A stretch of DNA of 64,000 bases from Candidatus Cryptobacteroides sp. (GTDB lineage Bacteria; Bacteroidota; Bacteroidia; Bacteroidales; UBA932): positions 510 to 64,509 of the forward strand of contig JBGUOB010000021.1 of NCBI GenBank assembly GCA_045117755.1. The letters run 5' to 3'. The translations under genes were made by a program, and so were the position numbers. Each line of letters starts with the position of its first letter. Position 1 is the stretch's first letter. This document shows positions 1,750-46,886 of the stretch, piece after piece. The notes under the pieces were generated by a model. That model was not told where the DNA came from. It worked only from the letters and a program-made list of their open reading frames with translations, and did no database searches.

Positions 1750-3105
1750 TTAAAATTCAACATCCAGGTTTTCGATTTCCGTGGCAACCTGCTTGAGGAA
1801 GCGGGTGGCTTCGCCGCCGTCGATGGCGCGGTGGTCATAGGTGAGGCTCAGGCCCATGTAGGGGACAAAGGCCACCACACCGCCGCCCAGGTCTTTCGGA
1901 CGCGGGACGATGGTGCCCACGCCCAGGATGGCGCTCTGGGGTACATTGATGATGGGGGTGAACCACTCCACGCCGAATCCGCCCAGGTTGGATACCGTGA
2001 AGGAAGCGGCTTCCGGAGAAAGCAGGTCCGGATTGATGCTGCCCTTCTTGCTGTCTTCGGCCACCTTCTTGAGGTTCTTGGCCAGGCCGGTGATGTTCAG
2101 CTCATCTGCGTGCGGGACGGCCGGAACCATGAGGCCGCGTTCTGTATCCACGGCCAGGCCCAGGTTCACGCTCTTGAAGAGGCGCATGGCGTCTCCCAGG
2201 CAGTGGGAATTCAGGTTGGGGAACTTCTGCAGGGCCTTGATGACGGCATAGCAGACAAAGTCGTTGATGGTGATGTTGACATCCACCTTACCCTCTTCGA
2301 AGGCCTTCTTGGCTTTCTTGCGGAGCGCCTGGACCTTGCGGGCGTCGGCACCCAGCATATGGGTGAGCTGGGCGGAGTTCTGGAGGGAGTTGTACATGCT
2401 CTTCGCAATGAGTTTGCGCATGTTGGACATCTTCACCACTTCGAACTCGGCGCCTTCTCCGGCAATGTCGGTGTGGTTGGCTTTCCAGACCTTCAGGTCG
2501 GCGCCCTTCACGGCACCGTTCAGGCCGCTTCCCGTTCCGGGCGATGCAAGTCCGCCGTCGGCCATCCTGGCCTTGGCCAGTCCCGTCAGGGTACCCTGGG
2601 CGGCGGCGGCGGCTTCCACGTCGCGGGCGATGATGCGTCCGTGAGGGCCTGTTCCGGCAACGCGGCTGGTATCCACACCCTTTTCAGCGGCTATCTTGCG
2701 TGCGCGGGGCGATGCGGGTGCGCCGGAGGGTACTCCCTCAGCAACCTGTGCCACCCTCGGCATCATAAGAGGGAGGGATCCAGCCTCCTGGCTGGGAGGG
2801 GTCGAGCTTTGCGAGACGGTGGTCGAGGGAGTACCTGCATTGGGGGCGAATTCGGCAAAGGACTCGCCGGGTTCGCCGATGACCATTACATTCGTCAAAA
2901 CGGGAATCTCGTCCCCGTCCTTGAAAAAGACGGCAAGGACGGTTCCCGCCACTTTTGCTTCTTCCTCGAAGGTCGCCTTGTCGGTTTCATAACCGAACAG
3001 GATGTCCCCTACAGCGACCTGGTCACCCGGTTTTTTTTTGAATTCGGAGACGATGCAGCTCTCCACGGACTGGCCCTGTTTGGGCATAATGACGACATGT
3101 GCCAT
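1750..3105 (-). CDS. dihydrolipoamide acyltransferase (E2) of a 2-oxoacid dehydrogenase complex
   Basis: Single lipoyl domain (ETDKAT), E3-binding domain (ASPRARKIA...GTGPHGRI), catalytic DHRAIDG. Confidence 0.94.
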   Translation of the reverse strand: MAHVVIMPKQGQSVESCIVSEFKKKPGDQVAVGDILFGYETDKATFEEEAKVAGTVLAVFFKDGDEIPVLTNVMVIGEPGESFAEFAPNAGTPSTTVSQSSTPPSQEAGSLPLMMPRVAQVAEGVPSGAPASPRARKIAAEKGVDTSRVAGTGPHGRIIARDVEAAAAAQGTLTGLAKARMADGGLASPGTGSGLNGAVKGADLKVWKANHTDIAGEGAEFEVVKMSNMRKLIAKSMYNSLQNSAQLTHMLGADARKVQALRKKAKKAFEEGKVDVNITINDFVCYAVIKALQKFPNLNSHCLGDAMRLFKSVNLGLAVDTERGLMVPAVPHADELNITGLAKNLKKVAEDSKKGSINPDLLSPEAASFTVSNLGGFGVEWFTPIINVPQSAILGVGTIVPRPKDLGGGVVAFVPYMGLSLTYDHRAIDGGEATRFLKQVATEIENLDVEF

Positions 3106-3189: not shown

Positions 3190-7440
<4,251 letters not shown>

Positions 7441-7461
7441 ATTACGTTTCGTTCAAACCAA

Positions 7462-10400
7462 TTAATCCAAAGTAACCTTGAGACCAAGACCACGGAGTTC
7501 GTGGAGGAGTACGTTGAGGGACTCCGGGATGCCTGCGGGCGGCATGGGGTCGCCCTTGACAATCGCCTCGTAAGTCTTGGACCGTCCGACGACGTCGTCG
7601 GACTTGACGGTCAGGATCTCCTGCAGGGCGTTGGCTGCGCCGAATGCCTCGAGCGCCCAGACTTCCATTTCACCGAAGCGCTGGCCACCGAACTGGGCCT
7701 TACCGCCGAGCGGCTGCTGGGTGATGAGGGAGTAAGGACCGATGGAACGGGCGTGCATCTTGTCGTCGACCATGTGGCCGAGCTTGATCATATAGATGAC
7801 ACCCACGGTCGCAGGCTGGTCGAAGTAGTCGCCGGTGCCGCCGTCGCGAAGCTGGGTCTTACCGAAACGGGGAACGCCAGCCTTGTCGGTGTAGGCGCAG
7901 ATCTCGTCGATGCTCGCACCGTCGAAGATCGGGGTGCTGAACTTCAGGCCCAGGCGGGCGCCAGCCCAGCCGAGGACCGTCTCGTAGATCTGTCCGAGGT
8001 TCATTCGGGAAGGCACGCCGAGCGGGTTCAGCACGATATCCACGGGAGTACCGTCCTCGAGGAACGGCATATCCTCCTGGCGGACGATCTTCGCGACGAT
8101 ACCCTTGTTACCGTGGCGGCCGGCCATCTTGTCACCCACCGTGATCTTGCGCTTCTTGGCGATGTACACCTTGGCAAGCTGCATCACGCCGTTCGGGAGT
8201 TCGTCACCCACCTTGATCTTGTCCATCTCACGCTTGCAGATCGCCTGCTCGGTCTTGAGGGCGATGCAGTAGTTGTTGATGAGGTCGCGGATCAGGAGGT
8301 TGGCGTCCTTGTCGGTCGTCCACTTGGCGGACGTGATGTTGGTATAGTCGATGCTCTTGAGCATCTCGGTGGTGATCTTCTTGTCCTTCGGGATGATCTC
8401 CACGCCGTAGAGGTCGGAGATACCGGCGCTCTTGCGGTTCTTCGTGAGGATCACGAGCTTCTGGATGAAGTCGGCGTACAGCTTCTCGGCCTTGCGGTCG
8501 AACTCGGCCTGACGCATCTCCAGACGGGTCTTCTGGTCGTTCTTGGCCTGGCTCTTCTTGCCGGTCTCCTTGGAGAGCTTGGCATAGAGGGCCGTACCGA
8601 CGACCGTACCGCTCAGGGACGGGTTGGCCTTGAGGGAAGCGTCCTTGACGTCGCCGGCCTTGTCGCCGAAGATCGCCTTGAGGAGCTTCTCCTCCGGGGA
8701 CGGATCGCTCTCACCCTTCGGGGTGATCTTACCGATCATGATGTCGCCCGGCTCGATGTGGGCGCCGATACGCACGATACCGTCCTCGCCGAGGTTCTTG
8801 GTGGCGTCCTCGCTGACATTCGGAATGTCGGAGGTGAGCTCTTCCATGCCGCGCTTGGTGTCGCGGACCTCGGTGAGATACTCGTCCACGTGGATGGAAG
8901 TGAGGACATCCCACTTCACCATCTCCTCGGAGAGCACGATGGCATCCTCGTAGTTGTAACCCTTCCAAGGCATGAAGGCCACCATCAGGTTGCGGCCGAG
9001 GGCGAGCTCGCCGTTCTGCGTGGCGTAGCCCTGGGTCAGCACCTGGCCCTTCTCCACCTTGTCGCCCTTGGATACGAGCGGCGAGAGGCAGATCGTGGTG
9101 CTCTGGTTGGTGCGACGGTAGATCGGCAGCTTGTAGACCGTCTCCTCCGGGGAGAAGCTGACGAATTTCTCGTCCTCGGTCTGCTCGTAGCGGATGCGGA
9201 TCTCGTTGGCGTCCACGTAGGTGACTTCACCCTTGCGCTCGGCGATGAACTGGGTGCGGGAATCCAGGCAGACGCGCTCCTCCAGGCCGGTACCCACGAT
9301 CGGGGACTCCGGCTTGAGAAGGGGAACGGCCTGGCGCATCATGTTCGCACCCATGAGGGCGCGGTGCGCATCGTCGTGCTCCAGGAACGGAATGAGGGAG
9401 GCCGCGACCGAAGCCATCTGGTTCGGAGCGACATCCATATAGTTGACTTCTTCCTTCGTGACGACCGGGAAGTCAGCCTCGAGGCGGCACTGGATGCGGT
9501 CTTCGAGGATGTTGCCGTCGTTGTCCATGCGGACGTTGGCCAGGGAGACGAGCTTGTTCTCTTCCTCCTCGGCGCTCATGTAGTGGCAGCCGGCGGCCGT
9601 CAGGTCCACCTTGCCGTCCTTGACGTCACGGTACGGAGTCTCGATGAATCCGAGCGCGTCGATGCGGGCATAGACGCACAGGGAGGAGATCAGACCGATG
9701 TTCGGACCTTCCGGGGACTCGATCGGGCAGAGGCGGCCGTAGTGCGTGTAGTGCACGTCACGGACTTCGAAGCCCGCGCGGTCGCGGCTCAGACCGCCGG
9801 GACCGAGGGCGGAAAGACGACGCTTGTGGGTGATCTCGGCCAGCGGGTTGGTCTGGTCCATGAACTGGGACAGCTGGCTCGTGCCGAAGAACGAATTGAT
9901 CACGGAAGAGAGCGTCTTCGCGTTGATCAGGTCGATCGGGTTGAACTGCTCGCTGTCGCGCACGTTCATGCGCTCGCGGATGGTGCGGGCCATACGGCTC
10001 AGACCCACGCTGAACTGGTTGGCCAGCTGCTCGCCGACCGTGCGGACACGGCGGTTGGACAGGTGGTCGATATCGTCGACCGCAGCCTTGGAATTGATCA
10101 GCTGGATGAGATACTTGATGATCTCGATGATGTCGGTGTTTGTCAGGACGCGCACGTCCGGAGCGATGGTCAGGCCGAGCTTCTTGTTGAGGCGGAAGCG
10201 GCCGACATTGCCCAGGTCGTATCTCTTCTCGGAGAAGAAGAGCTTGTCGATGACGTCGCGGGCCGTGCTTTCATCCGGCGGTTCCGAATTGCGGAGCTGT
10301 TTGTAGATGTAGTTGACAGCGCCGAGTTCGGTATTGGTAGGATCCTTCTGCAGGGTGTTGAAGATGATGGCGTACTCGTTGGAGCCCACCTCATCCTTCT

Positions 10401-11283
10401 GCAGGAGAATGCTCTTCTCATCGGCTTCGAGGATGGCCTCGATGGTGTTGTCGTCGAGGATCTCGCCACGGTTGACGATGATCTCGATACGCTCAACGGG
10501 GGTCACCTCGCCGGTGTCCTCGTCGATGAAGTCCTCGAACTTGGTCTTCAGCACGTTGTTGGCGAGCTTGCGGCCCTTGCCGGCCTCCAGGTTCTCGGGC
10601 GTCACCTCGATCTCGTCGGCCAGGTCGAAGATATCGATGATGTCTTTGTCCGCGTTGTAACCGATCGCACGCAGAAGCGTGGTCACGGGCAGTTTCTTCT
10701 TGCGGTCGATGTACGCGTACATCACATTGTTGATGTCCGTAGCGAACTCGATCCAGGATCCCTTGAAGGGGATGATGCGGGCGGAATAGAGCTTCGTGCC
10801 GTTGGCGTGCATGCTCTGGTCGAAGAACACGCCGGGGGAGCGGTGGAGCTGGGACACGATGATACGCTCGGATCCGTTGATCACGAACGTACCGGCGGGC
10901 GTCATGTAGGGGATGTCCCCGAGATAGACGTCCTGCACGCGGGTGTCGAAGTCTTCATGCTCCGGATCCGTGCACGAAAGGCGGAGTTTTGCCTTGAGCG
11001 GAACGTTGTAGGTCAGTCCGCGCTGCAGGCACTCCTCGATGGAATACTTCGGAGGATCGATAAAGTAATCGATGAACTCAAGCTTGTAGTTGTTCCTCGT
11101 ATCCTCAATCGGGAAGATTTCCTGGAATACCTGATAAAGGCCTTCGTTCTTGCGGTTCTCCGGCGTAGTCTCCAGCTGGAAGAAGTCCTTGAAGGACTTG
11201 AGTTGCACCTCCAGCAGGTCCGGATACTCCAGGATCTTGGATGTTGCGAAGTTAATACGCTTATTTGTTGCCTTTTTTGACAT
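7462..11283 (-). CDS. rpoB: RNA polymerase beta subunit
   Basis: [53 protein letters not shown]. Confidence 0.99.
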
Positions 11284-11332
11284 ATTCTGCCGATGGAAAC
11301 GGTTGGAAATGAAAGAAAAACTTAAATACGGA

Positions 11333-11373
11333 AAAAAGGTTTAGAGCCTGTTAACCCGGCTCTAAACCTGTTT
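11333..11373 (-). terminator. terminator/attenuator between rplL and rpoB
   Basis: Stem AGGTTTAGAGCC/GGCTCTAAACCT followed by a T-run on the minus strand; same position as the known rplL-rpoB attenuator in other bacteria. Confidence 0.65.
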
Positions 11374-11400
11374 GTCCCCGAAAGCAGGGAGAGGTTGGAG

Positions 11401-11775
11401 TTATTTAATCTCAACCTCAGCGCCGGCTTCCTCAAGAGCAGCCTTGAGGGCCTCGGCCTCTGCCTTGGAAATCTTCTCTTTCACCGTGGACGGGGCACCG
11501 TCAACGAGATCCTTCGCTTCCTTCAGACCGAGACCGAGCTCAGTCTTCACGACCTTGATCACGTTAAGCTTGGCCTGACCGGCATTCTTGAGGATGACGT
11601 CGAACTCAGTCTGCTCAGCCTCAGCGGCGCCAGCGGCACCACCCTCAGCGGAGACGACCACAGCGGCGGCTGCAGGCTCGATACCATACTCTTCCTTGAG
11701 GATCTTTGCAAGTTCCTGAACGTCTTTTACAGAAAGGTTAACCAACTCTTCTGCAAGGGCTTTAACATCTGCCAT
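11401..11775 (-). CDS. rplL: 50S ribosomal protein L7/L12
   Basis: EQTEFDVIL...[24 protein letters not shown]; operon position. Confidence 0.98.
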
Positions 11776-11807
11776 AATTTTATACTTTTTAATTGTTAAT
11801 ATTTTGC

Positions 11808-12446
11808 TTATTCTGCTGCAGGAGCCTCAGCTGCCGGGGCCTCTTCGGCGGCCGGTGCAGCCTCTTCTGCGGGAGCGGGTGCAGCTTCTGCTGCAGGAGC
11901 CTCAGCGGCCGGAGCCGCGGCGGCGGGCTTTGCAGACGCGATCTTCTCGTCGTCTGCCTTGCCCTCGGATGCGTTCTCGAGACCGCCGATGACGCGCTGG
12001 ATCGGGCTCTGGAGGAGGGCGATGATATCGCCGATGAGCTCTTCCTTCGTCTTGATGGCAGCGAGCTGGTCGAGTTTGTCTGCGCCGATGAAGACGCAAT
12101 CCTGCACATAAGCGCCCTTGACGATCGGCTTCGCGAAGCCTTCACGCTGGAGCTTCTTGATGAGCTTACCAGGTGCGGAAGGGACGTTGGTGTACATGAT
12201 GGCGGTGTTGCCGACCAGGGTCTCGGACAGAGACTTCACTTCTTCGTTCTCCAGGCCCTTGAGGACGTGGGCGAAGAGGGTGTTCTTGACAACGCTCAGG
12301 ACAATGCCTTCGTTGAAGCACTCACGACGGAGCTTGCTCGTCTGTCCAGCATTCAGCCCGGCAATATCGGTAATGTAGAAATTAGGATACTGCTGAAGCT
12401 GCGCTGAGATGCTTTCAATAATTTGACCTTTTGCTTCTTTTTTCAT
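11808..12446 (-). CDS. rplJ: 50S ribosomal protein L10 with Ala/Glu/Pro-rich C-terminal extension
   Basis: L10 core ([28 protein letters not shown]); lies between rplA and rplL. Confidence 0.96.
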
Positions 12447-12458
12447 AATATTGAATTT

Positions 12459-13166
12459 TTACTCAGCACCTTTGGAGAGGAATGCCTTGAGATCGATTTT
12501 AACACCGGGGCTCATCGTGGAGCACAGGGCTGCGCTCTTCATATAGGTACCCTTGAGGGCCTGCGGCTTGAGCTTCGCGATGGCGTTGAGCACCTCCGCG
12601 GCGTTCTCATAAAGCTGCTCGGCGGTGAAGGATGCCTTACCGATGCCCGTATGAACAATACCGGTCTTGTCGACCTTGAAGTCGATCTTACCGGCCTTGG
12701 AAGCCTTGACGGCAGCGCCGATCTCCATGGTGACCGTACCGGTCTTGGGGTTCGGCATGAGGCCGCGGGGACCGAGGACTTTACCCAGGGCACCCACCTT
12801 GGCCATCACGGAAGGCGTACAGACGATGACGTCAACGTCCGTCCAGCCACCCTTGATCTTCTCGATGTACTCGTCCAGGCCCACGTAGTCGGCGCCGGCT
12901 TCCTTGGCCTCGTTCTCCTTGTCGGGAGTACAGAGGGCGAGGACGCGCACCACCTTACCCGTTCCGTTCGGAAGGGTGACCACGCCACGAATCATCTGGT
13001 TGGCCTTACGCGGGTCAACACCGAGGTTCGCGGAGAGCTCGACGGTTGCATCGAATTTCGTAAACGTGATATCCTTTACCACCTGGCACGCCTCAGCGAG
13101 CGTATACAGCTTGTGAGAATCAAACTTCTCAGCGACTGCTTTCTGATTCTTAGTCAAAGTTGCCAT
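12459..13166 (-). CDS. rplA: 50S ribosomal protein L1
   Basis: [36 protein letters not shown]. Confidence 0.98.
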
Positions 13167-13180
13167 AACGCGTGTCGATT

Positions 13181-13624
13181 TTAAAGGTTCTCGGGGAATT
13201 CACCGGTGACGGTGATACCCATGCTTCTAGCGGTACCTGCCACCATGCGCATCGCGGATGCGAGGGTGAAGCAGTTGAGGTCCGGCATCTTGCCTTCGGC
13301 AATCGCTTTGACCTGGTCCCAGGTGACGGAGGCGACCTTCTTACGGTTCGGCTCGCCGGAAGCCTTGTCGATCTTGGCGGCTTCTTTCAGGGACACAGCC
13401 ACAGGCGGCTGCTTGACTTCGAAGGTGAAGGACTTATCGGAGTAGACCGTAATGACAACGGGAAGGGTCTTGCCAGCCTGGGCCTGCGTGGCTGCATTGA
13501 AAGCCTTGCAGAAATCCATGATGTTCAAGCCTTTGGAACCGAGTGCAGGTCCTACCGGAGGTGCAGGATTGGCAGCTCCGCCTTTGATTTGGAGCTTAAT
13601 GAATCCGGTAACTTCTTTTGCCAT
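13181..13624 (-). CDS. rplK: 50S ribosomal protein L11
   Basis: [23 protein letters not shown]. Confidence 0.98.
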
Positions 13625-13632
13625 GATAAATG

Positions 13633-14199
13633 TTATTCTTTAGTTACTTGCGTAAAGCTGAGTTCGAGTTGGGTCTTTCTTCCAAAGATCACCACAATTA
13701 CTTTGACCTTGCTCCGGTCTTCCAGAATCTCGTCGACGACGCCGCTGAAGCCACTGAACGGACCGTCCGTGATGCGCACGGACTCGCCGATCTCGTAGTT
13801 GACGAGGGTCTCGGCCGCGCTGTCAGCATTCTCGTCCTGAACGCCGAGGATCCGCTGGGCCTCTTCATCACGAATAGGCACCGGGATGCGCTCGAACTGG
13901 GCACCGGTGGTCGTTTTCTTTTCGGTCAGGAAACCGGACATGCCGGGGACAAGGTTGCGGATGATGTTCTCAAGCTTGGCACTGAGCTCGGCATGGATCA
14001 ATACATAACCAGGGAAAAGCAGCTTGTCGACTGCCTTTCTTTTGCCGTTTTTCGTGACAATTTCCTTTTTTACGGGAACCAGTACCTGAGCAACTGAATC
14101 CTGAAGTCCGCTTCTTTCGATCTCTTTCTCGAGATACTCTTTAGCCTTCTTCTCCTTCCCTCCTGCTGCCCGCAGAACGTACCATTTCATTTCGCCCAT
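13633..14199 (-). CDS. nusG: transcription termination/antitermination factor NusG
   Basis: NGN domain (WYVL...FPGYVLI) and KOW motif ([16 protein letters not shown]); follows secE. Confidence 0.97.
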
Positions 14200-14211
14200 A
14201 ACGAGTCAAGA

Positions 14212-14400
14212 TTACAATGTGTAGATTCCGGTCATCAGAGATTGGAAAGCGAAATCGATCACCCAGAGCACAAGGGCGAGGACGATGGTCGTGACAATGA
14301 CGAGCAGAGCGGAGCTCTGAAGCTTCGTCCACGTCGGCCAAGTCGTCTTCTTGGTGAGCTCGGTGAAAGACTCTTTGCAGTAATTGATAAACTTTCTCAT
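14212..14400 (-). CDS. secE: preprotein translocase SecE
   Basis: Start at ATG 14400 (MRKFINYCKESFTELTKKTTWPTW) plus one TM helix; lies between tRNA-Trp and nusG. Confidence 0.93.
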   Translation of the reverse strand: MRKFINYCKESFTELTKKTTWPTWTKLQSSALLVIVTTIVLALVLWVIDFAFQSLMTGIYTL

Positions 14401-14481
14401 CTTTACATTTAATGGACGCCGCGAAATGGAAGCGGGAGGGCGGCGTCTGTTAAACAATTACCAAATCGTAACCTTTGATAT

Positions 14482-14555
14482 TGGCAGGGGAAGCAGGAAT
14501 CGAACCCACATTGACGGTTTTGGAGACCGCTGAATTACCATTATTCTATTCCCCT
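14482..14555 (-). tRNA. tRNA-Trp(CCA)
   Basis: AGGGGAA acceptor stem, anticodon loop CTCCAAA, T-loop GTTCGATTC, encoded 3' CCA. Confidence 0.96.
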
Positions 14556-14607
14556 GTATAAGGCGGAGCGGGTCGCGAAACCCCCTCCGCCTCTGTGCTA
14601 ATCGAAA

Positions 14608-15795
14608 TTAGTCAAGGATCTTGATCACCTGACCGGCACCGACCGTACGGCCACCCTCACGGATAGCGAAACGGAGGTTCTCGTTCAGAGCAACCGGAGT
14701 GATGAGCTGGACGTCGATCTCCACGTTGTCACCAGGCATAACCATCTCGACACCGGCCGGGAGAGTGATCTCACCGGTAACATCCAGGGTGCGGATGAAG
14801 AACTGAGGACGATACTTGTTGTGGAACGGCGTGTGACGGCCACCCTCTTCCTTCTTCAGAACGTAGATCTGACCGAGGAAGTGCTTGTGCGGGGTGATGG
14901 AACCCGGCTTGGCGATAACCTCACCACGCTTGACTTCCTTCTTGTCGATACCACGGAGGAGGAGACCCACGTTGTCACCAGCCTCACCCTGATCGAGGAG
15001 CTTGCGGAACATCTCGACGCCAGTGACGACGGTGCTCTTCGGCTTGTCGTTGAAACCGACGATCTCAGCGGCGTCGTTCACGTGAACGGTACCCGTCTCG
15101 ATACGGCCGGTAACCACGGTACCACGACCGGTGATGGAGAAGATGTCCTCGATAGGCATCAGGAACGGCTTCTCGTTCTCACGGACCGGAAGGGGAATGT
15201 ACTCATCGACAGCGTCCATGAGCTCCATGACCTTGGCCTCCCACTCAGGCTCGCCGTTGAGGGCGCCGAGGGCGGAACCACGGATGACGGGAGCGTTGTC
15301 ACCGTCGAAGTCATACTTGCTGAGGAGGTCGCGGACCTCCATCTCGACGAGGTCAAGCATCTCAGCGTCGTCCACGAGGTCGACCTTGTTCAGGAAGACG
15401 ACCATCTTCGGAACGTTCACCTGCTTGGCGAGGAGGACGTGCTCGTTGGTCTGAGGCATCGGACCGTCGGTAGCAGCAACCACCAGGATAGCGCCGTCCA
15501 TCTGGGCAGCACCGGTAACCATGTTCTTCACGTAGTCGGCGTGGCCCGGGCAATCGACATGCGCATAGTGACGATTGGCGGTCTGGTACTCGACGTGAGC
15601 GGTGTTGATGGTGATACCACGCTCCTTCTCTTCAGGGGCGTTATCAATCTGATCGAAAGACTTGACTTCGCTCAGACCCTTGGAAGCCAGCACCTTGGTG
15701 ATAGCTGCGGTCAGAGTGGTCTTGCCATGGTCAACGTGGCCGATCGTGCCAATGTTGACATGCGGTTTATCCCGCTTGAAAACTTCTTTTGCCAT
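14608..15795 (-). CDS. tuf: elongation factor Tu
   Basis: [21 protein letters not shown]; 395 aa. Confidence 0.99.
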
Positions 15796-15852
15796 AATAT
15801 TACGTTTAAAAGTTTGTTTACAAATTAAAACCGGCTTTTCAACCGGCTTTTG

Positions 15853-15924
<72 letters not shown>

Positions 15925-15931
15925 AATATTT

Positions 15932-16006
15932 TGGAGCGGGGTAGGAGAATCGAACTCCCATTTCCAGCTTGGAAGGCTGGCATAATAGCCATTATACGAA
16001 CCCCGC
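15932..16006 (-). tRNA. tRNA-Gly(TCC)
   Basis: GCGGGGT acceptor, anticodon arm CCAGC-CTTCCAA-GCTGG, encoded CCA. Confidence 0.95.
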
Positions 16007-16043
16007 TTGTTGGAGTAGTCGTTCCGTTCTACTTCCGCTTCAG

Positions 16044-16125
16044 TGGGCAAGGATGGATTCGAACCACCGAAGGTAAAACCAGCAGATTTACAGTCTGCCC
16101 CATTTGGCCACTCTGGTACTTGCCC
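16044..16125 (-). tRNA. tRNA-Tyr(GTA)
   Basis: GGGCAAG acceptor, anticodon arm GCAGA-CTGTAAA-TCTGC, long variable arm. Confidence 0.95.
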
Positions 16126-16149
16126 AATTATTTTACATTGCTGATCGTG

Positions 16150-16223
16150 AGCCGATGGAGGGAATCGAACCCACGACCTTGAGATTACAAATCACACGCT
16201 CTAGCCAACTGAGCTACATCGGC
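16150..16223 (-). tRNA. tRNA-Thr(TGT)
   Basis: GCCGATG acceptor, anticodon loop TTTGTAA, T-loop GTTCGATTC. Confidence 0.94.
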
Positions 16224-18157: not shown

Positions 18158-19528
18158 TTACTGTTTCTTGATGTTCGGCAGTTCGAGGCCGTAGCCCTTC
18201 TTGCGGTCTTCCTTCTTCAGCAGGAAGCTGAAAATGAAGGCGAGCACGCCGAAGCTGGAGAAGACCAGCATCGGGATGAAGTAGCCGCCGGTCGAGCCGC
18301 GCAGCGAGCCGATCAGCATCGGCACGAGGCAGAGGCCGATGTTCTGCACCCAGAAGATGAGGCAGTAGGCCGAACCGAGGATCTTCTCGTCGATGATCTT
18401 CGGCACGGACGGCCACAGGGCCGCGGGCACGAGCGAGAAGCTCACGCCCAGGATGACGATCAGCGTGACGGCCAGACCCTTGGACGGGAAGGCGGGCAGC
18501 AGGAAGGCGAAGCTGAGGTGGCAGGCGATCATGATGATCGAGCCGATCATCAGCATCGTGGCGCCTTTGCCCTTGTGGTCCAGGAAGATGCCCAGGACCG
18601 GAGTCAGTACCATCGCCAGGATGGGGAAGACGCTGAACAGGCGGGCGGCCGTGGCGGCGTCGATCTGCAGGGTCTCTTCCAGGAAGTTCGGCGCGTAGCG
18701 CTGGAACGGGAAGATGGCACTGTAGTACAGCACGCAGAGCAGAGCCACGATCCAGAACATCTTGCTCTTGAAGATGGCGCCGAGGTCGCTCACGTGGAAC
18801 TCATCCTCCGGGGATTTCTCTTCCGTGGCGAGGCCGGCGGCGACCAGCTGCTTGTCGAACTTGCTGTCCATGAAGGCGAAGATGATGAAGTTGACCAAGC
18901 CGATGCAGAGCAGGGCGCCGCAGAATCCGACCGGAGCCATGATCGAGCCGTCGAACTTGGCGGAGATGATCGGGGCGATCCACATCACGCCGAACACGCC
19001 CAGACGGGCGATGGCCATCTCGAGGCCCATGGCGAGGGCCATTTCCTTGCCCTTGAACCATTTGGCGAGAATCTTGGAGACGTTGGTGCCTTCCATCTCG
19101 CAGCCGCAGCCGAAGATCATGAAGCCGAGCGAGGCCATCTTGGCGCTGGCGGGCATCTCGACCCACCAGGAGCCGAGCCACTGGGCGAGGGCGGTGGTCT
19201 GGAACCAGTCGCTGACGCCGACGAATTTGATGCCGGCGCCGAGGACCATCAGGCCCGCCGACAGGATGCCGGAGAACTGGACGCCGAGCTTGTCGAGGAT
19301 GATGCCGGCGAGAATCAGGAAGCCGCAGACGTTGAGGATATATTCGGATGCGGCATAGGTGCCGAACACGCCGCTGTTCCAGCCGAGGTTGGTCTCGACG
19401 AGGGACTTGAGCGGGGACATGACGTCCACGAACATGTAGGCGAAGAACATCATCAGCGCCACGAGGACCAGGACGGTCCAACGCGCCACCGGATTGTCGT
19501 TCATCAGCCGTTGAATCTTTTCAGTCAT
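18158..19528 (-). CDS. MFS transporter (substrate unknown)
   Basis: 456 aa, about 12 hydrophobic helices, GIILDKLG and GIFLDHKG loop motifs. Confidence 0.9.
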   Translation of the reverse strand: MTEKIQRLMNDNPVARWTVLVLVALMMFFAYMFVDVMSPLKSLVETNLGWNSGVFGTYAASEYILNVCGFLILAGIILDKLGVQFSGILSAGLMVLGAGIKFVGVSDWFQTTALAQWLGSWWVEMPASAKMASLGFMIFGCGCEMEGTNVSKILAKWFKGKEMALAMGLEMAIARLGVFGVMWIAPIISAKFDGSIMAPVGFCGALLCIGLVNFIIFAFMDSKFDKQLVAAGLATEEKSPEDEFHVSDLGAIFKSKMFWIVALLCVLYYSAIFPFQRYAPNFLEETLQIDAATAARLFSVFPILAMVLTPVLGIFLDHKGKGATMLMIGSIIMIACHLSFAFLLPAFPSKGLAVTLIVILGVSFSLVPAALWPSVPKIIDEKILGSAYCLIFWVQNIGLCLVPMLIGSLRGSTGGYFIPMLVFSSFGVLAFIFSFLLKKEDRKKGYGLELPNIKKQ

Positions 19529-19550: not shown

Positions 19551-19678
19551 GGCGGTTCCGTCCTCCCACTCCGGGACCCGTAGCCACCCTCGGCTTCGTA
19601 AGAGGGAGGGGCCCGCTGACGCAGTCAGTGGGAGGGGTCGCGAAGCGACGGTATCCGGAGTGGGAGGACGGAACTGCC
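19551..19678. repeat. ~128-nt multi-stem palindromic element, copy A (intergenic)
   Basis: 24-bp terminal inverted repeat (19551-19574 / 19655-19678, one G-T pair) enclosing internal hairpins; core homologous to 29372-29489 in the opposite orientation. Confidence 0.85.
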
Positions 19679-19692
19679 AAAATGGTAATCAA

Positions 19693-20241
19693 TTAGAACG
19701 GGAGATCGTCGGTCGGACCTTCGTCGGCGACGGGTGCTGCGGGTGCGACCGGGGCGGCCTGCGGGGCGGGCTGCTGGTACGCGGGCTGCTGCGGGGCGGG
19801 AGCGGGCTGCTGATAGCCGCTCTGGCGCTGGTAGCCACCCTGCTGGGGATAGCCGCCGCCCTGCTGGTCAGCCGGGTAGCCGGCGCCGTCGCCGTCGCGG
19901 CGGCCCAGGAGCTGCAGCGTGTCGACGTTGATCTCGGTGGTGTATTTCTCGGCGCCCTGGGCGTCGGTGTATTTGCGGGTGCGGAGTTTACCTTCGATGT
20001 AGAGCTGCGTGCCCTTGCGCACGAAGCGCTCGCACACGTCGGCGGGCTGGCCCCAGGCGACGATGTTGTGCCATTCCGTATTCTCGCGGGTTTCGCCGTT
20101 GCGGTCGCGGTAGCGCTCCGAGGTGGCGAGGGTGAATGTGGCGACTTTGCGGCCCTGATTGCCAGGGTTGTTTCCTTCGAGGTAACGTACATTGGGGTCT
20201 CTTCCAACGTTACCGATCAGCATGACTTTGTTCAGTGACAT
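19693..20241 (-). CDS. ssb: single-stranded DNA-binding protein
   Basis: True start MSLNKVMLIGNVGRDP at 20241; TEWHNIV, IEGKLRTRKY, Q/P/G linker, DDLPF tail. Confidence 0.97.
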   Translation of the reverse strand: MSLNKVMLIGNVGRDPNVRYLEGNNPGNQGRKVATFTLATSERYRDRNGETRENTEWHNIVAWGQPADVCERFVRKGTQLYIEGKLRTRKYTDAQGAEKYTTEINVDTLQLLGRRDGDGAGYPADQQGGGYPQQGGYQRQSGYQQPAPAPQQPAYQQPAPQAAPVAPAAPVADEGPTDDLPF

Positions 20242-27652: not shown

Positions 27653-29194
27653 ATGGCAGAATATAGCGAACAAGAATTGATCCGCCGCGAATCGCTGGCG
27701 AAACTGAGAGAATTGGGGATCGAGCCGTACCCGGCCGCTGAATACCCCGTGAACGCCACCGCGGCGCAGATCCTGGCAGAATTCGACCCGGAGAAGGGCA
27801 ACCTGCAGGACATTTGCATCGCCGGCCGCCTGATGAGCCGCCGTATCATGGGCGCCGCCTCTTTCGGCGAGCTCCAGGACGAGACCGGCCGCATCCAGAT
27901 CTACGTCAAGCGTGACGAGATCTGCCCCGGCGAGGACAAGACGATGTACAATACCGTCTGGAAAAAACTGATGGATATCGGCGATATCGTGGGCATCAAG
28001 GGCTTTGCCTTCATCACCCAGACCGGCCAGCTGAGCGTGCACGCCAAGGAGCTGACGCTGCTGAGCAAGTCGCTGCGCGTGCTGCCGATCGTCAAGGAGC
28101 AGGACGGCCAGGTGTTCGACGCCTTCACGGATCCGGAGCTCCGCTACCGGCAGCGCTATGTGGACCTGATCGTCAATCCGCAGGTCAAGGACGTTTTCTT
28201 CAAGCGGGCCAAGATCATCGCGACGATGCGCGAATATTTCAATGCCGCCGGCTGCCTGGAGGTGGAGACCCCCATCCTGCAGGGCATCCCGGGCGGTGCC
28301 ACCGCACGTCCGTTCATTACGCATCACAATGCACTCGATATTCCCCTCTACCTGCGTATCGCGAACGAACTCTACCTCAAGCGCCTGATCGTGGGCGGCT
28401 ATGCGGGTGTGTATGAGTTCGCGAAGGATTTCCGCAACGAGGGCATGGACAAGACGCACAATCCGGAGTTCACCTGCATGGAGATCTATGTGGCCTACAA
28501 GGACTACAACTGGATGATGAAGTTCGTCGAGACGATGCTCGCGAAGATTTCCCTCGCCGTGAACGGCACCACCAAGGTGAAGATCGGTGAGAACGAGGTC
28601 GATTTCGGCGGGACGTACCGCCGGCTGCCGATCCTCGAGGCCATCAAGGAGTACGCCGGCGTGGATGTGAAGGGGATGGACGAGGACGAGCTGCGCGCTA
28701 CCTGCAAGAAACTGAATGTGGAGATCGAGCCTTCCATGGGCAAGGGCAAGCTGATCGATGCGATCTTCGGCACCTATTGCGAGGATAAGCTGATCCAGCC
28801 GACCTTCGTCACCGACTATCCGGTGGAGATGTCTCCGCTGACCAAGCGCCACCGTACGGATCCGACGCTGACCGAGCGCTTCGAGCTGTTCGTGTGCGGC
28901 AAGGAGCTGGCGAATGCGTATTCCGAGCTGAACGATCCGATCGATCAGCTGGAGCGTTTCGAGGAGCAGGCTGCGCTGAAGAGCAAGGGCGACGACGAGG
29001 CGATGTATATCGATATGGACTTCGTGCGCGCGCTGGAGTACGGCATGCCGCCGACTTCCGGCCTGGGTATGGGTATCGATCGTCTGACGATGTTCATGAC
29101 GGGTCAGACGACGATCCAGGATGTGCTTTTCTTCCCGCAGATGCGGCCGGAGAAGGTGCTGAAGAAAGAGAATAAGGAACAGCAGGCAGAGTAA
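27653..29194 (+). CDS. lysS: lysyl-tRNA synthetase (class II)
   Basis: [49 protein letters not shown]. Confidence 0.98.
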
Positions 29195-30084
29195 TGGCCG
29201 AGGTCATCACGTCGCCTTCGAATCCGAAGATCAAACGGCTCCTCGCGTTGCAGCAGAAATCGTCTGCGCGGCGCGAGGCCGGTCTTTTTGTCGTCGAGGG
29301 TCAGCGTGAGCTTCAGCATTGCATCGATGCCGGGTTTGACATCGATACTATTTTCGTCTGCACTTCGCTCGGCGGAGGCGCTCCCCTGCAAAACTTCGCG
29401 CTTCGCGCTCATCCCTCCCAACCTGGCGGTTGGGCCCCTCCCGTTCACGAGGCCACGGGCGGCCACGGTTTTGCTGGGGAGGCCTCCGCACTCGCTGCGT
29501 CGCAGACGAAAGTCTTCGAGGTGACGCCGGAGGTGTATGCAAAGATTGCAATGCGAGAGGGGACGGAAGGCATCATGGCTGAAGTCAGGACACCCGAGAG
29601 AAAGTTGGCGGATCTGGAACTGCCGGAGAATCCGTTGATCGTTGTGCTGGAGAGCGTCGAGAAGCCCGGAAATCTGGGCGCGGTGCTGCGCAGCGCCGAT
29701 GCGGCGGGGGCCGATGCGGTGCTGATCTGCGATCCGCTGACCGACCTGTGGAATCCGAACCTGATTCGCGCGTCGATCGGGGCCGTGTTCACGGTGCCGT
29801 GCGTGGCCTGCAGTTCTGCCGAGGCCATTGCGTTCCTGAAGGCGCGCGGCATCCGCATCCTGACGGCGCAGCTGCAGGATTCTTCCCTCTATTATGATTG
29901 CGACATGACCGTCGGCACTGCGCTCGTGATGGGCACGGAAGCGACCGGGCTGACCGATGCCTGGCGCGCCGCGGCCGACGCACATATCCGTATTCCGATG
30001 CTCGGCCGCCTGGACTCGCTGAACGTGTCCGTGTCAGCCGCCATCCTCCTTTTTGAAGCCGTCCGGCAGCGACAGAATGGATAG
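29194..30084 (+). CDS. TrmH/SpoU-family RNA 2'-O-methyltransferase with in-frame palindromic insertion
   Basis: EKPGNLGAVLRSA, MGTEATGL, IPMLGRLDSLNVSVSA; low-homology 49-aa stretch between FVC and KVFEV. Confidence 0.92.
   Translation: MAEVITSPSNPKIKRLLALQQKSSARREAGLFVVEGQRELQHCIDAGFDIDTIFVCTSLGGGAPLQNFALRAHPSQPGGWAPPVHEATGGHGFAGEASALAASQTKVFEVTPEVYAKIAMREGTEGIMAEVRTPERKLADLELPENPLIVVLESVEKPGNLGAVLRSADAAGADAVLICDPLTDLWNPNLIRASIGAVFTVPCVACSSAEAIAFLKARGIRILTAQLQDSSLYYDCDMTVGTALVMGTEATGLTDAWRAAADAHIRIPMLGRLDSLNVSVSAAILLFEAVRQRQNG
29372..29489. repeat. ~118-nt multi-stem palindromic element, copy B (in-frame in CDS)
   Basis: Terminal inverted repeat 29372-29394 / 29468-29489; core homologous to copy A at 19551-19678. 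Confidence 0.85.
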
Positions 30085-34472: not shown

Positions 34473-35858
34473 CTATACGTAAGCCCCCATCTTGAGAATG
34501 TTGGTCTCGCCCTCGGTGAGGTAGCGCCACTCGCCCTTCTTGAGGCCCTTCTTGGTCAGGCCCGCGAAGTACACGCGGTCGAGCGCCTTGACGGTGTAGC
34601 CGAGGGTCTCGAAGATGCGGCGCACGATGCGGTTCTTGCCCGAGTGGATCTCGATGCCGAGCTTGCGCTTGTCCTTCTCGTCGATGTATTCGAGTTCGTC
34701 AGCCTGGACTTCACCGTCGCTGAGCTCGATGCCGGCGAGGATGCGGTCGAAGTCTTCCTGGCTGAGCGGCTTGTCGAGGGCCACCTGGTAGATCTTCTTC
34801 TTGTCGTAGGAGGGGTGCGTGAGGCGCTCGGCGATCTCGCCGTCGTTGGTCAGCATCAGCACGCCGGTCGTGTTCTTGTCGAGCCGGCCCACGGGATACA
34901 CCCGGGTGGGGCAGTTCTTGACGAGATCGACGACGGTCTTCTCGGCGTGGGGGTCGCTGGCCGTGGTGACGAAGCCCTTGGGCTTGTTCATCACGATGTA
35001 CACCTTCTCTTCGCCCTTGAGGCGCTCGCCGTTGAAGCGGATGTCGTCGGTGAAGACGTTGACTTTCGTACCCAGCTCGGTCACCACCTCGCCGTTGACG
35101 GTCACGACACCGGCCTGGATGAGGGTGTCGGCTTCGCGACGGGAGCAGACGCCCGAGTTGGCGATGAACTTGTTGAGGCGGACGGTGTCCTGGATCGGCA
35201 TGGTGTACGGCACCTCGGTGCTCTCGCTGCCGTTCACGACGGGACGGCGGCTGATCATGCGGTTGATGCCCTCCGTGGATTCACGGGTGAAATTGGGTTT
35301 GCGGCCCGGCTTCTTGGCGCCGGGTTTCGGACGGCCGGGGCCGCCCATCGGCTTGCGCGGGCCGGCGTTTCGGTGCTCGCCGAAGCTGCTGCGCCCCTCG
35401 TTGTTGTACGGGCGCTGGGGACGGCCTTCGCCGTACTGGCGCGGCTTGCGGTCGCCGTAGCCGCCTTCGCGGTTGCCGTAGCCGCCTTCCCGGCTGCTGT
35501 AGCCGCCGTTGTCGCGGTGGCCGTAGCCACCCTCGCGGTTGCCGCCGTAATTGCTGCGGCCTTCGCCGTACGGGCGGCGCTCGCCGTCGTCGGAGCGGCG
35601 GGAGCCATAGCTGTTGCCGCCGTGGCTGCCGTAATTGCCGCCGCGGCTGCTGTAGCCGCCGTTGTCACGGTGGCCGTAACCGCCCTGGCGGTTCTCACCG
35701 TAGGGACGCGGCTTGCGGTCGCCGTAATAGCTGTTTCTCTGCTCGCCGGACTCGCTGCGATGCGCGCCGGGCGTGTACTCTACTTTTTCGGATGCGGGGC
35801 GGGGCCCCATCGTTTTCCGCGGTCTAAGTTTTCGGCCTTCTTTGGTAAACTGGTCCAT
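34473..35858 (-). CDS. RsuA/RluB-family rRNA pseudouridine synthase with long disordered N-terminus
   Basis: S4 domain (RLNKFIANSGVCSRREAD), catalytic VGRLD, GKNRIVRR. Confidence 0.93.
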   Translation of the reverse strand: MDQFTKEGRKLRPRKTMGPRPASEKVEYTPGAHRSESGEQRNSYYGDRKPRPYGENRQGGYGHRDNGGYSSRGGNYGSHGGNSYGSRRSDDGERRPYGEGRSNYGGNREGGYGHRDNGGYSSREGGYGNREGGYGDRKPRQYGEGRPQRPYNNEGRSSFGEHRNAGPRKPMGGPGRPKPGAKKPGRKPNFTRESTEGINRMISRRPVVNGSESTEVPYTMPIQDTVRLNKFIANSGVCSRREADTLIQAGVVTVNGEVVTELGTKVNVFTDDIRFNGERLKGEEKVYIVMNKPKGFVTTASDPHAEKTVVDLVKNCPTRVYPVGRLDKNTTGVLMLTNDGEIAERLTHPSYDKKKIYQVALDKPLSQEDFDRILAGIELSDGEVQADELEYIDEKDKRKLGIEIHSGKNRIVRRIFETLGYTVKALDRVYFAGLTKKGLKKGEWRYLTEGETNILKMGAYV

Positions 35859-46064: not shown

Positions 46065-46886
46065 ATGCGCTATCTTGTCAAGCTTTCGTACAACGGCGCG
46101 GACTTCTGCGGTTGGCAGATCCAGCCCGATGCCCCGAGCGTCCAGCAGGCGCTCGAAAGCGCCCTGTCCACCCTCCTGCACGCCCCCGTGGCCGTGACCG
46201 GCGCAGGCCGGACCGATACGGGCGTCAATGCAATCGGCTACGTCGCGCATTTTGACGCAGCCGGGGATCTTGACACGCATCAATTATGCTACAAATTAAA
46301 TGCCATTCTGCCCCGTTCGGTGGTGATTCATGAGATCGCTCCGGCGGCCCCGGATTTCCACGCCCGCTTCGACGCCGCGCGGCGCGAATACACCTATTTC
46401 CTGCATCGGGTGAAGGATCCGTTCGTGGACGCATTTTCCTATCTCTACACCTTCCCCGGCGTGGATTTCGAGCGGATGAACGAGGCCGCGCAGGCCCTGC
46501 TGGGACAACACGATTTCCGCTGCTTCGAGAAGACCGGCGCCGACTCCAAGACCTCGCTCTGCACGGTCTCGGAAGCGGCCTGGCACCGCTACACGCCCAC
46601 GCATCTGCAGCTGACCGGGCGTGAGGGGGGAGAAGACTACTGGTATTTCCGCATCGCCGCCGACCGGTTCCTCCGCAACATGGTCCGGGCCGTCGTCGGC
46701 ACCCTGCTCGAGGTCGGGCGCGGCAAGCGCACCGTCGCCGACTTCCAGTCCCTCGTCCTCCCGGTTTCGTCCTCCGCCGGCTCCGATTCGTCATTCGCCG
46801 GCTTGACCGGCGAATCTCCCGCCCGCTCCCTGGCCGGCGAATCCGTTCCCGGCAAAGCGCTCTTCCTCAGCGAGGTCCGTTACTGA
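46065..46886 (+). CDS. truA: tRNA pseudouridine(38-40) synthase with in-frame REP insertion
   Basis: GWQIQP, GRTDTGVNA, FHARFDA, ADRFLRNMVR; -7 element TAATTTTG at 46047-46054. Confidence 0.96.
   Translation: MRYLVKLSYNGADFCGWQIQPDAPSVQQALESALSTLLHAPVAVTGAGRTDTGVNAIGYVAHFDAAGDLDTHQLCYKLNAILPRSVVIHEIAPAAPDFHARFDAARREYTYFLHRVKDPFVDAFSYLYTFPGVDFERMNEAAQALLGQHDFRCFEKTGADSKTSLCTVSEAAWHRYTPTHLQLTGREGGEDYWYFRIAADRFLRNMVRAVVGTLLEVGRGKRTVADFQSLVLPVSSSAGSDSSFAGLTGESPARSLAGESVPGKALFLSEVRY
46789..46819 (+). repeat. REP-like palindrome (CGTC-tagged), in truA
   Basis: CGTCATTCGCCGGCTTGACCGGCGAATCTCC; 1 nt different from the copy at 30963. Confidence 0.88.

Follow-up and report, generated by a model that had tools for sequence, protein, structure and literature searches.

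A foldback repeat family with a conserved, covarying junction core in gut and rumen Bacteroidales

A 64,000-nucleotide stretch of DNA from Candidatus Cryptobacteroides sp. (assembly GCA_045117755.1, contig JBGUOB010000021.1, positions 510 to 64,509; hereafter "the window") carries three copies of a structured foldback element, which we term copies A, B and C. Copy A (19551-19678, + strand) lies between an ssb gene (19693-20241, - strand; stop codon at 19693, protein end ...DDLPF*) and a gene encoding an MFS transporter (18158-19528, - strand; start at 19528), 15 nt past the ssb stop. Copy B (29372-29489, - strand) lies in frame, and is free of stop codons, in the linker of a TrmH/SpoU-family RNA methyltransferase gene (29194-30084, + strand), whose product is about 36 residues longer than orthologues of 258-260 amino acids. 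Copy C (2729-2835, + strand), with a variant core, is likewise in frame within a gene (1750-3105, - strand) for a 2-oxoacid dehydrogenase E2 acyltransferase, where it falls in the linker that joins the lipoyl domain to the E3-binding domain. All three copies are antisense to local transcription: the folding strand of copy A, its + strand, runs antisense to ssb as well as to the MFS gene, and the folding strands of copies B and C are each antisense to their host gene. A first-pass annotation of this DNA had described copies A and B and placed the folding strand of copy A antisense to the ssb-MFS transcript, with which the gene coordinates agree; it overlooked copy C and the in-frame position of copy B within the TrmH-family gene.

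Copy A comprises an outer stem, P1, whose 5' arm (19551-19578) pairs with the 3' arm that the fold places at 19650-19678, around a core with three hairpins. The 5' part of the core (19579-19606) reads CGTAGCC-A-CCCTC-GGCTTCGTAA-GAGGG and contains hairpin P2 together with a pseudoknot-type pairing of AGCC (19582-19585) with GGCT (19592-19595), marked by purine/pyrimidine (R/Y) covariation. Hairpin P3 (19612-19632) reads CCCGCTGAC-GCA-GTCAGTGGG, with a G·T fourth pair and a C(GCA)G loop, and hairpin P4 (19637-19649) is the C(GAA)G mini-hairpin GTCGC-GAA-GCGAC. Folded as RNA, copy A reaches -93.1 kcal/mol (z = -8.3), a value attained by none of 200 shuffled sequences, as an outer stem with 28-nt arms around the three hairpins; DNA parameters give -48.9 kcal/mol (z = -7.9). 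Copy B folds into the same architecture (-87.1 kcal/mol, z = -5.4), with imperfect pairing that extends outward to about 29353-29508. Copy C shares the family architecture (z = -2.7), with TGCC...GGCA in place of RGCC...GGCY (GGGAGGGATCC). Because the copies are palindromes, the opposite strands of A and B fold almost equally well.

The 23-base core pattern GGCYTCGTRANNGGGAGGGGCCC occurs twice in the window against an expectation of 0.03. A covariance model trained on 48 copies recovers copy B with 100 bits (E = 7e-25), copy A with 80.4 bits (E = 1.5e-19, at 19565-19664) and copy C with 59.4 bits (E = 8e-14, at 2733-2831). The shuffles and the pattern expectation rule out chance or low complexity as the source of copies A and B, which are real structured repeats.

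These copies belong to a large family. We scanned a GTDB set with one genome per species for the exact 22-base core pattern GGCYTCGTRANNGGGAGGGGCC and found at least 120 further stretches, at least 118 of them in metagenome-assembled genomes (MAGs) of Bacteroidales/Bacteroidia. Two other matches, in Gemmatimonadota and Roseomonas, lack the remainder of the element and were dismissed as chance. Among the matches listed, the hosts are ruminant, horse, chicken and human gut MAGs, with Candidatus Cryptobacteroides, Egerieisoma and "Bacteroides sp. CAG:770" among those named. Genomes hold several copies each, RUG13447 at least seven among the matches listed; the flank of copy A is 95% identical to RUG13447, where the orthologous site is filled (L055; L numbers denote loci fetched with their flanks, and P numbers below denote TrmH orthologues). 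The variant core of copy C recurs in the TrmH insert of L126. Across the fetched loci, about 1 Mb from dozens of genomes, the covariance model finds 132 copies, and the flanks of the copies are mostly unrelated, placing them at non-homologous loci. In the flanking sequence a second copy turns up roughly every 70 kb, a density that suggests tens of copies in each genome.

Known families and vehicles did not account for these repeats. Rfam 15 at gathering thresholds returned only tRNAs, in the window (five) and in 17 loci, and at E <= 10 around copy A only noise, so that a known RNA family is ruled out. A plasmid or phage origin was likewise set aside, as no record in PLSDB or INPHARED matched; IMG/VR holds only two matching contigs, each with the match at a contig end. 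Literature searches found no description of the element. The first-pass annotation had proposed a possible new element family, had pointed to related Bacteroidales as the place to search for it and could match it to no named family, and these points hold: the copies are far more than an isolated pair, their stems covary as described below, and they correspond to no described Rfam or REP family. We conclude that this is a previously undescribed foldback repeat family of the bacterial palindromic-repeat or MITE (miniature inverted-repeat transposable element) kind. Its host range points to one gut and rumen group of Bacteroidales, namely Cryptobacteroides, Egerieisoma and relatives; that the element is specific to this group, taken jointly with the view of its spread that we favor below, stands for us at even chances.

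Segmentation of 113 copies gave a consensus plan. Its first half reads 5' arm, CGT-R-GCC, R, CCCNN, GGC-Y-TCGT-R-A, NNGGG, AGGGG, and its second half CCC-R-[P3]-Y-GGG, AGGG(A/G)T, [P4 or nothing], 1-3 nt, 3' arm. Elements measure 100-150 bp. The outer arms form a median of 25 Watson-Crick pairs, and their sequence diverges fast with complementarity kept. They enclose a conserved core of about 75 nt, reading CGTRGCC...GGGAGGGG on the folding strand, that consists of a four-way junction, a pseudoknot-type helix and two variable hairpins. P3 rises from a conserved base, CCC-R...Y-GGG. Both P3 and P4 are hypervariable in sequence and length, some P3 hairpins carry 40-60 extra nucleotides, and P4 is absent from 14 of 83 copies. 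Arm lengths were taken from an X-drop stem caller, since minimum-free-energy folds over-extended the stems. A G-quadruplex built from the four G-runs was rejected as a requirement, the fourth run being only GG in several copies (GGGAAGG).

The conserved helices covary. In P2 the three outer pairs are invariant and the two inner pairs take four forms, GT/AC (74 copies), AT/AT (16), TC/GA (11) and GC/GC (7), which are always paired. The purine of CGT-R-GCC and the pyrimidine of the P2 loop form a pseudoknot-type pair, G-C in 69 copies and A-T in 37, with zero exceptions among intact copies; the variant core represented by copy C has T-A here. Judged from sequence, the RGCC/GGCY pairing may form an H-type pseudoknot with P2 or else an alternative hairpin that competes with P2. 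A further covariation links the purine after GCC to the purine in the P2 loop (G..G in 78 copies, A..A in 27, two exceptions) and is a non-Watson-Crick relationship. Over a model-fitted alignment of 107 distinct copies, 94.1% of cells hold a pair, compared with 68.0% in column shuffles, and the covariation score is 0.569 compared with 0.150, a level that 0 of 500 shuffles reach; controls in which the partner was slid score 0.05-0.10. P2 is 100% paired in this alignment, and RNAalifold independently recovers P1, P2 and P3 from an unfitted MAFFT alignment.

The hairpin loops are equally characteristic. C-G-closed P3 loops are GNA in 36 of 75 cases and GNNA in 18 of 75 (54 of 75 together), and P4 loops are GNA in 31 of 48 cases, with a C-G closing pair in 41 of 48. 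According to Hirao and colleagues, d(C-GNA-G) reportedly gives exceptionally stable DNA mini-hairpins.

The fold belongs to one particular strand. At the fourth position of P3 the pair is G·T (G·U in RNA) in 63 of 105 copies, A-T in 36 and G-C in 6, a trend also visible in the RNAalifold analysis of the unfitted alignment; on the complementary strand most copies would have C·A there, a mismatch. In the outer stem, interior mismatches scored symmetrically show the same preference, with 41 G:T and 22 A:C (p = 0.02). Much of this had been read from copies A and B alone. Their quoted sequences are present in the DNA, and the double compensatory changes in stem 2, the variable but still paired stem 3 and outer stem, the G-T pairs that favor one strand and the GNA mini-hairpins all recur family-wide. 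The first-pass description lacked the pseudoknot-type RGCC/GGCY pairing, and the conserved base of its stem 3 is corrected here to CCC-R...Y-GGG.

A subfamily (L025, L050, L053, L078, L052, L022 and L116) has an enlarged P4 (GTCGGAAC-TYG-TTCCGAC). Four of its loci (L025, L050, L053 and L078) conserve about 46 nt upstream, and most have a terminator-like hairpin and a T-run downstream in the folding orientation; their outer flanks differ. This subfamily could represent a larger mobile unit or a transcribed source copy.

A fold of this kind raises the alternative that the core functions as a structured RNA, either small RNA or a molecule resembling a ribozyme, made from one or a few source genes, with the outer stem as its closing helix and the genomic copies as dispersed and mostly inert (retro-)copies. 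We regard this as a serious alternative, if an unlikely one. It draws on the multi-helix junction with pseudoknot covariation, the conserved G·U/A-U pair in P3, the non-Watson-Crick G..G/A..A covariation and the strand specificity of the fold, as well as on the four loci of the enlarged-P4 subfamily in which upstream conservation and the terminator-like hairpin with T-run recur in different contexts. Set against these points, no Rfam family matches, the dominant loops are C(GNA)G triloops, where RNA usually has GNRA or UNCG tetraloops, and a conserved promoter is absent from the element. Local genes run antisense to each of the three window copies and to 18 of the 26 copies deep in open reading frames (ORFs), and neither a reverse transcriptase nor any other partner recurs near the copies. 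To our knowledge, moreover, no bacterial system disperses short RNAs as DNA copies.

The positions of the copies relative to genes bear on a host function. Taking the longest ORF as the host gene fails, as shadow ORFs are common in GC-rich DNA; we therefore separated real frames from shadow ORFs by a GC3 > GC1 rule calibrated on known genes of the window. Of 107 assessable copies, 67 lie between genes or no more than 40 codons from a gene end, 26 are deep in open frames (18 antisense, 8 sense) and 14 are ambiguous. Stop codons would produce the antisense excess: on the sense strand the consensus has TGA or TAA within the P2 loop and, after GGGAGGGA, TGA or TAG, and all three antisense frames are open. 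Intragenic copies, at least about a quarter of all, usually lie in domain linkers, in either orientation, and further host genes encode UvrD (a linker again), a radical-SAM protein, an MFS transporter, a DUF5107-TPR protein and TruA. Copies survive where they are harmless, between genes or in frame in translated protein linkers.

The many copies just past gene ends, with 67 of 107 intergenic or near such an end, would suit a host-maintained palindrome resembling REP or ERIC, one that serves as a terminator, mRNA stabilizer or protein-binding site, passes vertically and by recombination, and is not mobile. Orthologous copies that persist across species with a conserved core and compensated arms would suit it too. 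We find this account very doubtful, since at least a quarter of the copies lie inside coding regions, where such roles are implausible, since nearly identical copies occupy unrelated loci in different genomes, and since copies come and go at 94% gene identity and can be inserted twice.

The last of these observations comes from the TrmH gene that hosts copy B. Among its 120 closest orthologues, with the linker measured between two anchor motifs, 16 have a linker of 34-36 residues in proteins of 258-260 amino acids and lack the element, 9 have short remnants and about 95 have one or two elements. Element-bearing proteins have 291-350 amino acids, and double insertions occur, as in P0008, P0018 and P0033. 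Filled and empty alleles at orthologous sites, which the first-pass annotation had named as a check, do exist. Comparison of the empty P0063 with the filled P0075 reveals a clean 126-nt insert that contains both arms. The empty P0101 and the filled P0009 are 94.2% identical and differ by 99 nt; a deletion between TTGCGG and TTGCCGG, at the base of the stem, could turn a P0009-like allele into P0101.

Within TrmH linkers the B-type core is antisense, and the A-type and variant cores each occur in either orientation; the core is read in at least three reading frames. Both orientations and several frames together exclude conservation at the protein level. The idea of a peptide module inserted into proteins can point to intragenic copies that are open and translated; the same DNA core nevertheless runs in at least three frames and both orientations, most copies are intergenic, and conservation tracks base pairing rather than codons. 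We accord it next to no probability.

Several empty linkers bear traces of an earlier element. Five of the six empty TrmH linkers examined keep hairpin potential, P0096 being the exception. P0071 (L131) reads TTCGAAAAC...AGCGAAAAAGTTTTCGA, that is, arms plus a P4 remnant (z about -5); P0076 (L132) looks like the arm remnant of a deleted copy; P0100 retains both arms without the core, and P0119 the 3' part only. From these sequences, at least some empty alleles appear to be secondary losses that left palindromic footprints. Pre-existing hairpins were considered as targets of insertion; the palindromes in the empty linkers of P0071 and P0076 may instead be footprints. Elsewhere, L088 is empty where L045 and L102 are filled, a comparison too diverged for base-level reading, and L072, in an MFS context, was discarded for junction reading as too rearranged or diverged. 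The window's own truA gene (46065-46886) is empty at about 46600-46615 and that of L064 (RUG12515) is filled; the flanks are about 73-77% identical and the junction is unreadable.

Related copies show how the arms evolve. In a subfamily comprising L008, L034, L097 and L074, which occupy unrelated loci in different genomes, homology of the arms extends along their full 30 nt, and the arms of L008 and L074 are nearly identical. The paralogues L096 and L112 of RUG13447 have 19 of 24 arm bases in common and three compensated changes. Between orthologous copies the core is almost constant, and arms and P3 change in concert: copy A and L055 differ at several arm positions, with four complementary double changes in 25 bp and an almost identical core, a one-base indel separates L023 from L101 in each arm, and a crude position-wise count over orthologous pairs gives 31 positions changed on both sides with the pair kept. 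The P0101/P0009 comparison had suggested that the outer stem is made from the target by inverted duplication. We rejected this as a general explanation, because the subfamily arms are homologous over 30 nt across unrelated loci and because the 126-nt insert of P0075 includes both arms. To judge by these comparisons, the arms are part of the inherited element, and their complementarity may be kept by templated correction in an extruded hairpin, by mismatch repair of a hairpin intermediate and/or by selection for pairing.

Two further observations concern the stems. At one orthologous locus (L003, L004, L046 and L095) the arms are near-identical (20-22 of 22 positions) and the P3 stem differs wholly by species (CCGC/GCGG, GGCC/GGCC or CTCC/GGAG), so that P3 can turn over faster. 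L096 and L112 have 11-17 bp of additional locus-specific pairing outside the inherited arms, in apparent coding sequence.

Taken together, these results are consistent with a non-autonomous selfish foldback element that is recognized through its folded core and spreads as folded single-stranded DNA (ssDNA), a reading that we consider evenly poised between right and wrong. Under it, an enzyme encoded elsewhere would recognize a single strand in its folded form, most likely ssDNA that replication or transfer exposes, through the junction core and would then copy or insert the element. Recognition of the folded junction is proposed because the center is conserved and the ends are free. The arms would be inherited, would drift quickly and would stay complementary through arm-to-arm templated correction and/or selection for pairing, and deletion between short repeats at the base of the stem would remove copies and leave palindromic remnants. 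We favor ssDNA because of the mini-hairpin loops, the independence from the direction of host transcription and the concerted evolution of the arms in situ. The element contains no ORF of its own.

A number of observations weigh against this reading. No mobilizing enzyme, transposition intermediate or excision junction was seen. The filled and empty comparisons gave no clear target-site duplication or target motif, and in three of them 2-6 nt of ambiguous microhomology at the junctions prevents the ends from being fixed to the base. Empty TrmH alleles may be losses rather than never-occupied sites, and recombination between arms could flip the core, so that the two orientations do not prove separate insertions. 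Functional RNAs, more typically than known ssDNA transposon ends, show features such as the pseudoknotted junction, the conserved R·U pair and the purine-purine covariation, and one subfamily carries a terminator-like hairpin and T-run in the folding orientation. Finally, the orientation of copies shows no significant bias relative to local GC skew (66:49, p = 0.14), measured over 8-kb flanks and thus noisily. Strictly lagging-strand ssDNA transposons, such as IS200/IS605, do show an orientation bias.

One candidate enzyme would be a Y1 transposase of the HUH type. The first-pass annotation had suggested a HUH/RAYT-type substrate as an example, with a RAYT or IS200/IS605 link as a check, and in that case a Y1 transposase located elsewhere would cut and join the folded strand. 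ORFs within 2.5 kb of about 120 copies cluster only into housekeeping families or orthologous contexts; no transposase-like gene recurs among them, and no Y1 gene is present within that distance. The strand-specific fold, the absence of an evident target-site duplication with near-precise loss, and the GTAG/GTGG at the start of the core, which resembles the 5' tetranucleotide of REP sequences, would fit such a substrate, and the non-canonical covariation recalls the base interactions between guide and cleavage site in IS608. The element nevertheless has one symmetrical foldback in place of distinct left-end and right-end hairpins, its ends are variable with no fixed flanking tetranucleotide seen, its orientation bias is not significant, and at 100-150 nt and often intragenic it is unlike REPs. 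Nothing specific favors a Y1 mechanism, and we rate it decidedly unlikely.

A bolder proposal is that the family exemplifies a new structure-addressed class of mobile DNA whose ends are defined by pairing, or else that its core is a new ribozyme or an RNA fold that binds protein and gives rise to dispersed copies, the bacterial equivalent of short interspersed elements (SINEs). The central pseudoknotted junction would then be the sole sequence-specific part, and the ends would lie wherever hairpin pairing stops. An enzyme family with no link to transposition so far would move the element in the form of folded ssDNA, or copy it from folded RNA, and the arms would be homogenized in a hairpin intermediate. 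We put this forward as speculation and think it unlikely to be correct.

Among known systems, the element probably comes closest in behavior to the Rickettsia palindromic elements (RPEs), palindromic repeats of about 100-150 bp that lie in frame in unrelated housekeeping genes, are translated and have no known transposase (PMC10969869). The likeness lies in the in-frame translated insertions found here in TrmH, the E2 acyltransferase, TruA, a radical-SAM protein and UvrD. In a comparison by description only, RPEs differ in being conserved over their full length and encoding a conserved peptide; here the center alone is conserved, arms differ, several frames are used, the junction and pseudoknot covary and G·T pairs are strand-specific. 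The hosts here, as Bacteroidales, belong to another phylum, and the family is very unlikely to descend from RPEs. In size, copy number and unexplained spread, the element is arguably ERIC-like: ERIC/IRU sequences are imperfect palindromes of about 127 bp, present in either orientation in tens to hundreds of copies, mostly intergenic and occasionally intragenic, and their means of spread is unknown (PMC10969869). Compared by description, ERIC is conserved along the palindrome, has no known multi-helix core and belongs to another phylum, and the core pattern matched neither plasmid records (PLSDB) nor ERIC-bearing E. coli.

Other palindromic and hairpin systems share single features. REP and REPIN sequences are structure-defined palindromes with a 5' GTAG-like motif that are thought to act as ssDNA hairpins. 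REPs are simple extragenic hairpins of 20-40 nt with a REP-flanked RAYT gene, whereas here 100-150 nt form four helices, at least a quarter of copies are intragenic and no Y1 gene lies within 2.5 kb. With MITEs such as Correia/NEMIS and RUP, the family shares short, non-coding, multi-copy hairpins with inverted repeats and insertion polymorphism. MITE ends, however, are conserved, match a parent insertion sequence (IS) and are flanked by target-site duplications; here the ends are least conserved, being common within subfamilies only, there is no clear duplication, and no IS with these ends was present in any examined locus. IS200/IS605 derivatives (PATEs) have two different subterminal hairpins and a fixed tetra- or pentanucleotide target, unlike the single symmetrical foldback found here, for which the flanks of related copies share no common motif. 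Integron attC sites are recognized as a folded single strand, vary in sequence but stay paired, and have one active strand. They conserve R''/R' boxes at the stem base and vary at the apex, the reverse of the present element, which occurs in housekeeping-gene contexts with no cassette arrays and no integrase context.

If the selfish ssDNA reading is true, the family would be the second well-documented case of palindromic selfish DNA that adds peptide segments to housekeeping proteins, this time outside Rickettsia and in abundant, uncultured Bacteroidales of the rumen and gut. It would invert the usual logic of transposon ends: conservation and the pseudoknot lie in the center, the arms vary freely, and the fold is that of one strand. 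Such an architecture points to an unknown enzyme that would read a folded single strand and that phylogenetic profiling could find. Practically, the repeats break MAG assemblies (several matches lie at contig ends), create length variants of conserved marker proteins and mimic invertons or terminators in automated screens; the covariance model can be used to annotate them.

Some loci show additional repeats. L069 has two copies, at 3697-3794 (- strand) and 3866-3962 (+ strand), only 70 nt apart in one long ORF. In L118, a 36-nt tandem repeat (2.3 copies, 4680-4761) sits next to the element and duplicates the distal portion of the 3' arm, and a 72-nt array (3.2 copies, 4918-5147) lies on the element's other side. 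These arrays also occur in L044, L059 and L083, and all four loci represent one orthologous context.

The remainder of the window yielded a few minor observations. A fourth, weak covariance-model match at 35508-35629 was rejected as a GGY-type low-complexity coding repeat; the false match arises because this repeat contains CCGTAGCCACCC. The GGY/RGG-like repeat spans 35440-35700 (GCCGTAGCCGCC...), in the N-terminal part of a gene (34473-35858, - strand) for an S4-domain pseudouridine synthase. A core housekeeping block at 3190-16223 (- strand) comprises two very long ORFs, which we take to be rpoC and rpoB, along with the likely tuf gene, tRNA-Trp and tRNAs clustered in the order Thr-Gly-Tyr-Thr. 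Over nearly the whole window the + strand has a positive GC skew.

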